Positions 15,501 through 18,500 of a stretch of DNA of 64,000 nt are shown here, piece by piece. Position numbers: made by a program. How positions within the stretch are numbered: position 1 is the first letter of the stretch; each line of letters opens with the position of its first letter. This DNA is from an uncultured Alphaproteobacteria bacterium. Its GTDB lineage: Bacteria > Pseudomonadota > Alphaproteobacteria > CAIYWZ01. Location of the stretch: positions 6,460 to 70,459 of the forward strand of contig CAZCFE010000001.1 of the NCBI GenBank assembly GCA_964497925.1, given 5' to 3'.

Positions 15501-18500
15501 CCAAGTCCTCCGTCTATAAAAATACGTCTGGAATCATCAATTGAGGAATATATTTCCACAGGGGAAAAATACCCAGGGAAGGCAGAGGTTGCTGCAACAA
15601 CATCGACTTTTGAATACTCATTTTCCTCCCAACTTGATAAAGCGGCTATTGATTTTTTATGTGTGTCAAACACCAAAACAGCACTTGGTTTTGTAACATT
15701 TTTTGTTGTCCCGCTCCCTAGGTATTCCGATAAAACCGACTTAAATTCATTGATCTGATATTTTGGTCTCACGAATCCATAAAACGACCAAGGATTATAA
15801 GTAAATACGCGGCCTGATTTTTGAATCAACATTGATAAAAGATCTTCAGCGGTATATTTTGGATAAGAAGGGTTATTTTCATCAGGATGTGTCAAAAAAG
15901 TTGAAACGATTCCCCCTGCTGATGTCCCAACAATCAAATGAAACATCTCGCTTATACGTTTTTTTGTTTTCTTCTCAAGAGCTACCAAAATGCAGGCTGT
16001 AAATATAACTTTCATTCCACCTCCATCAAGAGTTAGAATACGCGCCGTTCCTTGATCATAAATCTTGGGTTCTTGGTGAAAAAATTCATCTGATGCGAAA
16101 AATCTTGATTGCATAAAAAAAGTGGCTATAAAGGCCACCACACAGAACCAGATAGAATGATTTTTGAATGTCCTCATAATACATACTCCTTCTGATATTT
16201 TATGCTGTTATCAAAACATAAATTAATTAGCTTTGAGTTAAAAACAATTGCAAATTTGAGCAAATTTCAATATAAATTGAATATTTACGCTGTCCTGATG
16301 AGAGCAAATTAAAAATAAATCATTCATAAATTTAGTGATTACAAAAAATTAAAAGATTTGTTAAGATAATAATGTGATAGTATAAGATAAAATTGATGTT
16401 ATTATTGTAAATATGGGCTGTTAATGAAAACGTTAATCATCATGCGACATGGAAAACCAGTAGAATTTGGCGAAGGATTCGTTGATTTTGATCGTCCTTT
16501 GACTTTTTCTGGATTATCATTCATCAGATTACAGGCCAATAAATTACAAACGATTTCGCCTACTATTGATAGTATTGCGTATTCTCCATCAAAAAGAACT
16601 TCAGAAACCATGGAAATTATATCTTCAATTTTCCCTTATTCTAAAAAAAACTCTATTGAGAAAATTTATGGAGCAAGAGCTCCTATTTTGGAGGATATTA
16701 TTATTGATTTCCCCACAAATACACAAACATTATTATTGATTGGACACAACCCTGGGATTAGCGATCTTTTTGGAAATTACACTAGAAATAAACCATTATT
16801 TTCTCCTGGATCGTTCGGCATTATTCGCTTTGATATAGAACAATGGAGTGAAATAACCTATACGAAACCCTATTCATCAAGTTATCATCATGGCAAATAA
16901 AACGATATTATACATTCTTATCGGATTCTTCTCTTATTCAGCAGTTCTTTATTCAGCAGGAGCGGCCGCTTCTGCTGCTGGGGCCGATGCTGCTGCAAAA
17001 AACACAGCTAACTCTGTCCCTCCTTTTGAACAAGAAAAAACAAGTGATGATGAGGATGAAGACTCTCCAGCTCCAGCTCCAGCTCCAGCTCCAGCTCCAG
17101 CTCCAGCTCCAGCTCCAGCTCGAGCTCGAGCTCGAGTATCATCATCCACGACACCTCCTTTTGAAGCAACAGATAAATCTGAAGAACCCGAGAAAAGTGA
17201 AGCCGCTCCAACACCCCCTGCTGAGCCCGCAACACCAGAACCTGCTGAGCCGGTCAAAACTGTAGAACCCGCGAAAGCTGAAGAAATAAAACCTGCAGAC
17301 CCAATTAAGAAGGTAGATTCGGTGGCTCCTTCTATTCTCGCAAAGCCCATCGCGCCACCGGCACCTCAAGTCCCCCTTAACAACAAAACATATCAACAAA
17401 TCATGGAAAACCCAACAAACCCTTGGCTAGATGAAGAAGTCTCTTTAGATGCAAAAGCACGCTTAGAAAGAATGAGAAACAGTGCGCCAGTCACAGGAGC
17501 GGACATAAAGTTAAAATCTTTATATCCAGCATGGAGAGATGCTATTGATCAATACCCACCATGGCAAGAAGCTTTAACAGCCTACCCTAATTGGAACCCA
17601 ACTGCTTACACCGTAGGATACAAGGCTTGGAATCTGTCTACAAAAGATCCTCAAGGTATTGCTCTTGCTTTAGCAGAAAGTAAATACGACATTAACAATA
17701 TGAATTCTTTTGGTGGGTATGTAAAAACGCTCGAAACAAGTGGAGCACTTCCAAATACTCAATTTGCAAAAAAAGAAGATAGAAGCGGGGCCTTAGCCTC
17801 AACAGAACCATCCGCGTCCTCTGCAACAGTTGCAGGGCTTGCTGAAGACACCACCCCTTTAATGGCCGCATACCTTTTATTGCAAAGCGGAGTTGATGCT
17901 TGGGAGGCTCCAGATAGACTTGGAAAATTACGCGGCATGTCGTGTATTATGGCCTCAAAAGCACAAATCACTGTAGCAAAAGCAATTGCTCTTGGATATC
18001 CTGTTGACGTCACCGCAAAAGCAAAAATCCCGGCATCTCAAGCATTTTCAAGCTCAAAAGAAGCAGCAACTGCACAAGATCCGAATAGATTAAGCTCTCT
18101 TTATGAAATGATTGTCACATCTACCATGGATGCCGTCAAAATAATCGGCCTTTCACCCACACCAAAAACAAAACCCACAACAGATCAAAACGTCATCACA
18201 TTAATCACCGATGCGGATGCAAAAATTTCATATGTAATTGGGCTTATTTCTCAAGGGACAAATGGAGGGCCTGATCAAACTCAAAAGATAGGATCTTTAC
18301 GCACAGTTGTACAACAAATTAAAGCTGCACAAACGAGCCTTGCGCCGCAGGCTACTCCAGAAGCCACTCCAACGACCGGGGTTCCTCCCCCTGCCATATC
18401 TGCCGAGGCAGCAGCATCCGTACTTGCTCCAGCTCCGACTCCGCCCGCAGAAACGCAGGCTCCCATACCTTAATTATATTTTTTTAGAAACGAAAATAGC

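Follow-up and report, generated by a model that had tools for sequence, protein, structure and literature searches.

The window analysed here is a stretch of 64,000 nucleotides from a contig of an uncultured Alphaproteobacteria bacterium. Its feature of interest is an open reading frame (ORF) for an orphan protein of exported type, which carries a perfect, in-frame hexanucleotide microsatellite. The overall layout of the protein comprises a Sec-type signal peptide, a presumably disordered region of about 130 amino acids (aa), a domain of about 330 aa that is predicted to be all-alpha, and a short tail rich in proline and alanine. The coordinates of these elements, and of the gene that precedes the ORF, are collected in Table 1.

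Table 1. Features of the locus, with positions counted along the window
Feature	Position	Strand	Details and evidence
SixA-like histidine phosphatase gene	16424..16900	+	158 aa, RHG motif; His_Phos_1 E=6e-4; TIGR00249 sixA E=2e-13, which falls short of the curated threshold
ORF of the putatively exported orphan protein	16890..18473	+	527 aa plus stop, ATG start; homologues, dN/dS 0.07
Sec-type signal peptide, residues ~1-31	16890..16982	+	hydropathy, -3/-1 sites; N-termini of the same type in P0002, P0003, P0005 and P0008
Low-complexity P/A/E-rich region, residues 32-162	16983..17375	+	P 23%, A 22%, E 11%, net charge -10
First motif, VPPFE, residues 43-47	17016..17030	+	PPF[EA] also in P0002 (two), P0003 and L001
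Acidic patch DDEDED, residues 53-58	17046..17063	+	within the low-complexity region
Perfect microsatellite (CCAGCT)9, encoding (PA)9, residues 60-77	17067..17120	+	array at the same site in L001
Variant units (CGAGCT)2CGA, encoding RARAR, residues 78-82	17121..17135	+	absent from L001
Second motif, TPPFE, residues 88-92	17151..17165	+	kept in L001, P0002 and P0003
Conserved family domain, residues 163-490	17376..18359	+	family alignments; predicted all-alpha
P/A/T-rich C-terminal tail, residues 491-527	18360..18470	+	SAEAAASVLAP common to the close relatives P0001 and P0006

Genomic setting and coding evidence

The SixA-like gene lies directly upstream of the ORF and overlaps its start by 11 nt. 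A SixA-like gene of 158 aa is also found 3 nt upstream of the orthologues at loci L003 and L004/L002, which belong to one clade, and it is likely to be the operon partner of the ORF. Further neighbours include genes for COQ7, DsbB and MreCD, with TrcR and PBP2 at the loci of a second clade (clade B). A Tim44-like gene in the window, together with the TrcR genes of clade B, agrees with a diderm alphaproteobacterial host.

Several lines of sequence evidence indicate that the ORF is a genuine, translated gene. Comparison of the domain with that of an approximately 81%-identical relative (L001) over 313 codons gave a dN/dS of 0.073 at a dS of 0.96, and the linker gave a dN/dS of 0.23. Purifying selection on the domain is thus strong, the family alignment contains many invariant W, Y, P and G positions, and the position of the signal peptide is kept across homologues. 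Three other ORFs overlap the repeat (16949-17350 on the minus strand, 16987-17265 on the plus strand and 17008-17235 on the minus strand), reading (GA)n, (LQ)n and (LE)n, and these were set aside as by-products of the repeat.

The protein consists of 17% alanine and 12% proline, compared with 10% for both residues combined in 26 other ORFs of the window. The gene has a GC content of 46% against 36%, an excess that results from its alanine and proline content. Horizontal transfer was considered as a source of the high GC and rejected, since third-position GC (GC3) equals the genome mean (0.24-0.29 in the ORF against a mean of 0.287 in the 26 other window ORFs) and the excess is located at codon positions 1 and 2. 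The two codons of the repeat, CCA and GCT, are common in the source genome.

Protein architecture and family

The N-terminus of the window protein, examined by inspection and hydropathy, has a lysine at position 4, followed by a stretch free of charged residues (5-32), and offers several candidate cleavage sites with small residues at -3/-1. A tandem duplication of 15-16 nt (SYSA / LYSA) at 16929-16959 lies within the hydrophobic h-region, and Tandem Repeats Finder (TRF) reports it as two copies of period 15. By inspection, signal peptides are present in all five full-length family members, and the h-region measures 11-15 aa in P0002, P0003, P0005 and P0008. The segment therefore has the charged n-region, hydrophobic h-region and small -3/-1 residues of a cleavable Sec signal, in line with the signal peptide named in the sequence-only reading, and it is positionally conserved in the homologues. 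Neither a further hydrophobic segment nor a lipobox or LPXTG motif occurs in the five full-length members, and the sole cysteine, at residue 352, lies outside any lipobox, so the protein does not appear to be a lipoprotein. The h-regions of most family members are short, so the signal peptide is probably cleaved. In that case the P/A-rich region would lie at the unattached N-terminal end of the mature protein and would not form a stalk linking an anchor to a head.

The uncharged run of the window protein extends over 28 aa, a length that would permit an uncleaved membrane anchor. The protein could then be a signal-anchored, periplasm-spanning molecule comparable to TonB or TolA, with its hydrophobic N-terminus retained in the inner membrane, its P/A/E-rich region and the stiff (PA)9 segment crossing the periplasm, and its helical domain at the peptidoglycan or the outer membrane. 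TonB and the OmpA hinge are characterised by extended proline-rich spacers, and the surroundings include a loose set of cell-envelope genes: MreC/MreD at a distance of 1.7 kb, RodZ and MurJ elsewhere in the window, and, in clade B, an adjacent PBP2 gene in convergent orientation. However, these envelope genes are neither co-oriented nor co-transcribed with the ORF, and the clade B linker measures just 30-40 aa or so. The h-regions of P0002, P0003, P0005 and P0008, with their small -3/-1 sites, are typical of cleavage, and in most family members the h-region is not long enough to serve as an anchor. The protein does have a region resembling a spacer, but Pfam and NCBIfam searches found no TonB_C, TolA or OmpA domain. 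Such an architecture is therefore regarded as very improbable.

The low-complexity region following the signal peptide can be aligned only within the close clade, with the exception of short motifs. Both the acidic patch and the P/A/E-rich linker of the earlier description are found in the protein. Across the family, the region preceding the domain varies from about 30 to about 130 aa and bears acidic patches at either end, while the core domain is conserved. The linker also differs by an 11-codon indel from that of L001, which bears out the expectation that linker length is variable among relatives. The array sits between two PPFE motifs, with a distance of 45 residues between them in the window protein and of 23 in P0002. 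PPF motifs are kept in the otherwise unalignable linker of clade A and are absent from the members of clade B.

These motifs raise the question of a host-directed secreted effector of an intracellular or host-associated alphaproteobacterium, in which PPFE and PxxP-like motifs would interact with proteins of the host, the (PA)n tract setting the PPFE spacing. In favour of this view are the retention of PPF[EA] in clade A, the placement of the repeat exactly between the motifs, the restriction of the family to few uncultured lineages, and eukaryote-like genes nearby, which encode ankyrin repeats, a patatin and a weakly matching J-domain protein. On the other hand, the gene has no linked secretion system or effector signal, its neighbours are housekeeping genes, and the members of clade B lack PPF motifs. 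Moreover, a Sec signal peptide is atypical of effectors secreted by type IV or type I systems. An effector function is accordingly judged quite unlikely.

The conserved domain consists of two different halves. The N-terminal half contains four aromatic repeats of about 10 residues (YPAW / YPPW / YPNW / YKAW, nt 17517-17633), and its AlphaFold2 (AF2) model is poor, with a pLDDT below 50. The C-terminal half (nt ~17856-18341) is predicted to form a six-helix bundle, with a pLDDT of 75-85. Neither the protein nor its homologues matched any entry of Pfam, NCBIfam or PHROGs (in Pfam, 0 families at E<=1), and the best match in sequence-profile searches of the PDB had an E value of 2. The structure prediction and Foldseek comparison that had been suggested for the C-terminal part were carried out with AF2 models, and no match was returned.

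The family is small and limited to a few uncultured alphaproteobacterial lineages. Its census combined an exhaustive profile search with a domain-only profile, as P0006 and clade B were missed by the whole-protein search, and it yielded 7 clusters among 5.8 billion. The exact window protein was not in the protein collection searched, where its neighbours are present. The sole match in a scan of a genome collection was the metagenome-assembled genome holding P0002, and metagenome scans with a protein pattern and with a 25-base DNA flank pattern both gave no match. Most family members lack the microsatellite. An identical P0005 sequence occurs on 7 contigs, and the four places retrieved represent four different samples.

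The hexanucleotide array and its origin

The array begins at a codon boundary, nt 17067 being the first base of residue 60, and its product, S-(PA)9-RARAR-V, spans residues 59-83. It is the sole perfect hexamer array with at least four copies in the window, and 100 dinucleotide-preserving shuffles gave an expectation of 0.00 matches to the four-unit pattern. Its units are perfect and arranged head to tail, the unit length is a multiple of 3, and it lies inside the ORF, which makes it an in-frame coding microsatellite. The sequence-only reading had described nine in-frame CCAGCT units followed by exactly two variant units. The former part holds, and the latter depends on the register: (CGAGCT)2 at 17121-17132 is followed by CGAG, and in another register the array reads (CTCCAG)9(CTCGAG)3 at 17065-17136, so that the variant is present in about 2.5-3 copies. 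It is also correct that slippage of a 6-nt unit in frame would alter the length of the protein and leave the frame intact.

Comparison with relatives provides insight into the origin of the array. Between the PPF motifs, the corresponding site reads ACA CCC GCA CCA GCT in P0002 and TCA CCA GCA CCT GTT in P0003; these distant orthologues thus contain a mixed-codon S/T-P-A-P seed and no array. In L001, which derives from run ERR14822395, a pure array of at least five GCT-CCA units occupies this codon position, despite a synonymous divergence from the window that is near saturation (dS ~0.96, pS = 0.54 per synonymous site). The L001 sequence also shows an apparent 1-nt frameshift in a C-run. At this pS, the probability that ten codons would be identical by descent is about 0.459^10 = 4e-4. 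The purity of the CCA-GCT units in L001 therefore suggests that slippage has turned the units over and homogenised them. The CGA variant unit, which occurs three times in a row in the window and is missing from L001, is on this comparison a single C-to-G change copied by slippage into adjacent units. Changes of a slippage type also occur elsewhere in the 5' third of the gene, namely the 15-nt duplication in the signal peptide and the 11-codon indel of KPAEP type relative to L001. Taken together, the pure array, the codon pair kept at dS ~0.96 and the duplicated CGA unit bear the marks of slippage that had been anticipated, and, judging from the sequences compared, the repeat is young, has expanded within one clade and has experienced slippage in the past. 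The persistence of the array in two lineages at a dS of about 1 could equally reflect selection for a minimum (PA)n length, a possibility that argues against strict neutrality.

Assemblies from sequencing runs were used to examine the array further. Logan contigs of SRR10036080-82 are 100% identical to the window and end at or near the array. These three independent run assemblies come from the same organism as the window and agree with it at 100% identity on either side of the array as well as over its first and last parts. Assemblies at k=31 are broken by the array in every run examined, and the gene is consequently fragmented or absent throughout such resources. As a side observation, contig L013 begins at 17120 and not at ~17091. 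Heterogeneity among the reads was considered as a cause, and the shift was given no weight since contigs of the same runs also break at non-repeat positions, probably owing to low coverage.

These data bear on whether the locus is an artefact, either because the ORF is not a gene or because the repeat arose during assembly or cloning, CTCGAG and GAGCTC being the XhoI and SacI sites. Such a view could draw on the failure of short-k assemblies to resolve the array, which makes the copy number given for the window a matter of how its assembler treated the repeat, and on the missing protein record mentioned above. It is nevertheless already largely refuted and deserves almost no credence, given the agreement of three run assemblies, the presence of an array at the same codon position in the diverged L001, and strong purifying selection in a conserved family.

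Known systems and the preferred interpretation

In-frame Pro/Ala-rich repeats that are polymorphic and immunogenic are known from pneumococcal PspA/PspC (PAPAP-type) and from Bordetella pertactin, in which repeat length varies by slippage or recombination with the frame kept. The present ORF resembles them in that tandem repeats encode an extended low-complexity P/A segment in an exported-type protein. It differs in that PspA/PspC and pertactin have a choline-binding domain and an autotransporter barrel, respectively, and documented polymorphism, whereas the ORF protein has neither an anchor nor homology to them. The sequence-only reading had suggested a length-variable surface antigen, a wall-spanning spacer or an adhesin stalk. 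A wall-spanning role of the Gram-positive kind does not apply, because the organism is a diderm alphaproteobacterium and LPXTG is absent.

A surface antigen or adhesin stalk, in which selection would favour length or antigenic variants made by slippage, would fit a protein of exported type with a pure, unstable-looking array kept in two diverged lineages, and the ankyrin-repeat and patatin genes of the window, together with ankyrin proteins at L002/L004, suggest a host-associated context. Against it, Pfam and NCBIfam searches revealed no beta-barrel translocator, autotransporter, known adhesin passenger or anchor domain, lipobox and LPXTG are lacking, and the structured part is predicted to be all-alpha. 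The absence of the microsatellite from most family members, the invariance of P0005 across four samples and the free N-terminal tail that cleavage would leave also speak against this role, which is considered unlikely.

The remaining comparisons place the array among other known repeats. The OmpA hinge (APAPAPAP) and the (EP)n/(KP)n segments of TonB are stiff, extended X-Pro spacers of diderm bacteria that join folded or anchored modules of recognisable families. The tract shares their X-Pro dipeptide character and is distinguished by its probable location in a free N-terminal tail, by the lack of an OmpA or TonB_C domain, and by perfection at the DNA level over nine identical units. Mycobacterial Apa, or fibronectin-attachment protein, a secreted antigen of the FAP family (PF07174), likewise has a signal peptide and is rich in alanine and proline, but it belongs to another phylum and is not known to have a microsatellite-type array, and the ORF protein has no Pfam match at E<=1 that would place it in this family. 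The contingency loci of Haemophilus and Neisseria also contain perfect short repeats in ORFs of exported proteins, mutable by slipped-strand mispairing. Unlike those repeats, whose units are not multiples of 3 and mediate on/off switching, a 6-nt unit within the coding sequence changes protein length alone, so the array is not a phase-variable contingency locus. A further parallel at the DNA level is provided by the 6-bp VNTRs used in MLVA of Salmonella and E. coli O157, which are perfect, have about ten copies, are often in frame and are hypervariable between isolates; 6-nt loops are poorly corrected by MutS-dependent mismatch repair. The variability is measured in those arrays and inferred for (CCAGCT)9. 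A literature search for bacterial in-frame hexanucleotide repeats returned nothing specific, one for the PAPAPAPAPA motif returned mainly papers with engineered (AP)n linkers, and no paper came up for the run and assembly accessions.

In our reading the array is an in-frame coding microsatellite of an ordinary type, one of the well-known low-complexity tracts that are prone to slippage, in an orphan exported protein. The best explanation of the locus, with a probability of roughly 0.58, is a lineage-restricted, exported orphan protein that carries a young, slipping and probably near-neutral (PA)n spacer. According to this explanation, the Sec pathway probably exports the protein and signal peptidase I probably cleaves it, with the periplasm or beyond as its destination. 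The mature protein would then consist of the all-alpha domain between disordered P/A-rich tails with short motifs (PPFE twice; SAEAAASVLAP). The (PA)9 tract would have arisen by replication slippage from the ancestral S/T-P-A-P seed between the two PPFE motifs, and continuing slippage would maintain its purity, which would make it unstable at present. Each event would add or remove one Pro-Ala pair without a frameshift, owing to the 6-nt unit, and if the geometry is polyproline-II-like, one pair would contribute about 0.6 nm to a chain that is extended and rather stiff. The tract would thus act as a length-adjustable spacer in a disordered region, with probably nearly neutral variation and no on/off switch.

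A more far-reaching proposal is that the family, with its eight members, represents an undescribed class of exported or secreted proteins of host-associated alphaproteobacteria, in which disordered tails carry docking motifs (PPFE twice; SAEAAASVLAP), a self-homogenising (PA)n microsatellite of the window/L001 clade serves as a "molecular ruler" between the PPFE motifs for a host or envelope partner, and translational coupling to the SixA-like gene links production to a phosphorelay. This proposal is speculative and improbable. If the ruler reading were true, the distance between the PPFE motifs would be heritable and quickly adjustable.

If the tract varies within populations, it could serve as a simple strain-typing marker for this uncultured alphaproteobacterial lineage, and the natural variants would allow the functional effect of spacer length to be studied in an exported, disordered tail. 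Orphan families of this type are common in metagenome-assembled genomes. The present family would nevertheless be a reasonable target for structural or functional genomics, since neither relatives nor a known fold could be detected for it, purifying selection on it is strong, and its pairing with a SixA-like phosphatase gene is conserved.

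The hexanucleotide array and the gene that carries it

The reading frame at 16890-18473 (+) of the window stays open for 527 codons from its ATG, and within it Tandem Repeats Finder delimits a period-6 array of 11.5 copies with 98% matches. The array begins at a codon boundary and is translated as S-(PA)9-RARAR-V. This start and exact matching bear out the in-frame (CCAGCT)9 microsatellite with its (PA)n tract that had been described in the sequence-only reading, and the acidic patch and P/A/E-rich stretch claimed there were both found in the protein. No other perfect hexamer array of at least four units occurs in the 64-kb window, and 100 dinucleotide-preserving shuffles gave 0.00 expected matches to a four-unit pattern. 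Reading frames on the opposite strand or in other frames over the repeat were rejected as by-products of it. An 18-nt perfect palindrome, (CTCGAG)3, forms three tandem XhoI sites interleaved with SacI sites; its polylinker likeness is countered by independent assemblies with the same motif in native flanks.

Features of the target gene, its product and the window
Feature	Position	Strand	Description or method
Signal peptide	residues ~1-31		K4, hydrophobic core, Ala/Gly/Ser-rich c-region, many -3/-1 sites
Low-complexity region	residues 32-162		P 23%, A 22%, E 11%, net charge -10
Conserved domain	residues 163-490		aligns in whole family
C-terminal tail	residues 491-527		P/A/T-rich
Tandem duplication	16929-16959		15-16 nt, 2 copies
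Period-6 array	17065-17133		Tandem Repeats Finder
(CCAGCT)9	17067-17120	+	exact matching
(CGAGCT)2, then CGAG	17121-17132 (two units)	+	exact matching
(CTCGAG)3	17119-17136		palindrome
SixA-like gene with target	window 16424-16900 with 16890-18473; L003 7521-9371; L004 7176-9038		gene pair (L003, L004: orthologue loci)
Patatin-like phospholipase and ankyrin-repeat protein	15074-16177; 30181-30825	-
HPD-motif ORF	27495-29288	+	597 aa
Lipoprotein-like ORF	29492-30031	-	179 aa
gidB-parA-parB cluster	51000-53280

Judged from its sequence, the frame is a real gene. Against L001 (Logan ERR14822395), a contig of a relative from another sequencing run with ~81% DNA identity, the conserved domain gives a dN/dS of 0.073 with a dS of 0.96 (313 aligned codons) and the linker 0.23 (72 alignable codons), the L001 linker carrying an extra KPAEP-type insertion of 11 codons. 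Gene order 3' of the target is common to both (COQ7, DsbB, DedA/VTT, MreC, MreD, Tim44-like, cytidylate kinase). At L001 ~283-300 (~17350-17370 in the window), a 1-nt indel in the C-run GCCCCCCTACCCCACC splits the orthologue into 101-aa and 370-aa frames, which may reflect a genuine frameshift or pseudogene, or else misassembly where run coverage was low. The GC content is 46% in the target and 36% in the window; the high Ala and Pro content of the protein (29% versus 10% elsewhere) places this excess at the first and second codon positions. A foreign origin was rejected, since GC3 (0.24-0.29 in signal peptide, linker and domain) matches that of the 26 other ORFs (mean 0.287, range 0.245-0.344).

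For the same organism, three Logan assemblies (SRR10036080-82) match the window at 100% identity. At the array, contig L010 ends 30 nt in (17094), L011 ends at the start (17071) and L013 begins at the CGA junction (17120); such breaks are what a k=31 assembler (the Logan pipeline) makes of a 54-nt perfect repeat. The L001 contig starts with exactly 30 nt of repeat, so its array is probably longer than the k-mer. The exact 527-aa protein was not found in the NCBI and Logan protein collection, where proteins of neighbouring genes are present, and metagenome scans for the target by protein pattern and by DNA flank pattern gave no match.

Probable export and the conserved domain

In the four other full-length family members, the h-regions of the N-terminal signal sequences span only 11-15 residues, a length more in keeping with cleavable Sec signal peptides than with membrane anchors. 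The uncharged N-terminal run of the window protein is longer than in relatives (28 aa), partly because of a tandem duplication (TTCTCTTATTCAGCAG) in the signal-peptide coding region, by which SYSA / LYSA is doubled and the hydrophobic core extended; this is a second slippage-type event in the gene. A signal-anchored periplasmic tether is given a low probability. Inspection of the whole protein revealed no lipobox, LPXTG or second hydrophobic segment, and its sole Cys is residue 352.

Searches of Pfam, NCBIfam, PHROGs and PDB sequences gave no match to the conserved domain. AlphaFold2, run twice, was confident only in the domain's C-terminal half, a six-helix bundle with pLDDT 75-85; the aromatic N-terminal half contains four YPxW-type repeats of ~10 residues, and its fold is not resolved in the models. 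The C-terminal modelling and Foldseek comparison proposed earlier thus yielded a bundle, with nothing beyond generic helical bundles in PDB and BFVD (E of at least 0.03).

A rare family and its neighbourhood

Searching with the whole protein gave four relatives; a HMMER profile, run exhaustively against 1.84 billion cluster representatives, matched four, and a search seeded with the most distant member added one. As a domain-only profile search of a 5.8-billion-cluster collection matched seven clusters in total, the family is very small. Clade A comprises the window, P0001/L001, P0006, P0004, P0002 and P0003; clade B comprises P0005 and P0008. The word-indexed full-protein search missed P0006 and clade B, which the domain-only profile recovered; PAPAP-type low-complexity words may have crowded its list of at most 8000 candidates, a caveat for A/P-rich queries. 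The identical P0005 sequence, free of the microsatellite, lies on seven contigs, and the four places retrieved belong to four different samples.

In every clade A locus with upstream DNA, a gene for a SixA-like histidine phosphatase (158 aa) directly precedes the target on the same strand; the two genes share 11 nt in the window and lie 3 nt apart in L003 and L004. The outer flanks differ between loci, while the pair, which joins a cytoplasmic regulator gene to an exported-protein gene, is kept. In clade B, a TrcR-like gene lies upstream, and a convergent PBP2 gene adjoins the 3' end.

Other features of the window were also recorded. The 597-aa frame encodes a hydrophobic N-terminal segment, then a long coiled-coil-like stretch rich in E, K and Q, and an HPD motif (LKVHPDKQGG) towards the C-terminus, its C-terminal segment weakly matching the DnaJ J-domain (PF00226, E=0.0018, 18.8 bits; cut-off 27.8); its product may be an exported J-domain protein. 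The 179-aa protein combines a lipoprotein-like N-terminus (…VFSGC) with a glycine-zipper region, and its weak matches, none of which reaches the curated cut-off, are to TraT and to the glycine-zipper domain of the rickettsial 17-kDa antigen. The gidB-parA-parB cluster suggests that the window may be close to the chromosomal origin of replication. In the MAG carrying the L002 and L004 loci, large ankyrin-repeat proteins adjoin the orthologue, one of which carries a fused subtilase (S8) domain; together with the patatin-like and ankyrin-repeat genes of the window, these suggest a host-associated lifestyle of the lineage.

History and meaning of the repeat

The L001 contig starts inside a pure (AGCTCC)5, at exactly the position of the window array, followed by ISSSTTPPFEAT. 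In P0002 the homologous site is flanked by two PPF[EA] motifs, and in P0003 it precedes the single one; no array was detected in either gene, the site holding only E-[ST]-P-A-P-[AV] in mixed codons (ACA CCC GCA CCA GCT; TCA CCA GCA CCT GTT). The microsatellite is thus confined to the window/L001 clade. Throughout the (PA)9, Pro is encoded by CCA and Ala by GCT, a purity with a chance of ~5e-9 given genome usage (CCA 37%, GCT 32%). Ten comparable positions have identical codons in the window and L001, versus a 54% difference at synonymous sites elsewhere in the gene (probability ~4e-4). In the window, three neighbouring units carry a C-to-G change (CCA to CGA, Pro to Arg) that no L001 unit shows; the simplest account is a single mutation and later copying of the unit. 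Codon purity, codon identity across lineages and the copied CGA variant together indicate repeated slippage and not a frozen relic. A MutS gene is present in the window; MutS-dependent repair acts on loops no longer than about 4 nt, and 6-nt slippage intermediates largely escape it.

Each slippage step would add or remove one Pro-Ala pair, so the tract is an adjustable spacer at most. The array lies between two conserved PPFE motifs, 45 residues apart in the window and 23 in P0002. Adaptive variation of the tract's length and a host-directed effector acting with proline-rich motifs both have a low probability. The surface antigen, wall-spanning spacer or adhesin stalk envisaged by the sequence-only reading found no support: the protein has no anchor or adhesin domain, the organism is diderm, and most family members lack any array. 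In kind, the array matches familiar in-frame VNTRs and X-Pro spacers, among them the PspA/PspC proline-rich regions, the repeats of pertactin, the OmpA hinge, the spacer of TonB and 6-bp MLVA loci. It is unlike phase-variable contingency loci, as its unit length is divisible by three.

The evidence best supports an exported orphan protein with a conserved helical domain between disordered P/A-rich tails, the N-terminal one carrying a young in-frame microsatellite that homogenises itself. The repeat is thus a familiar kind of feature in an uncharacterised, very rare protein family.
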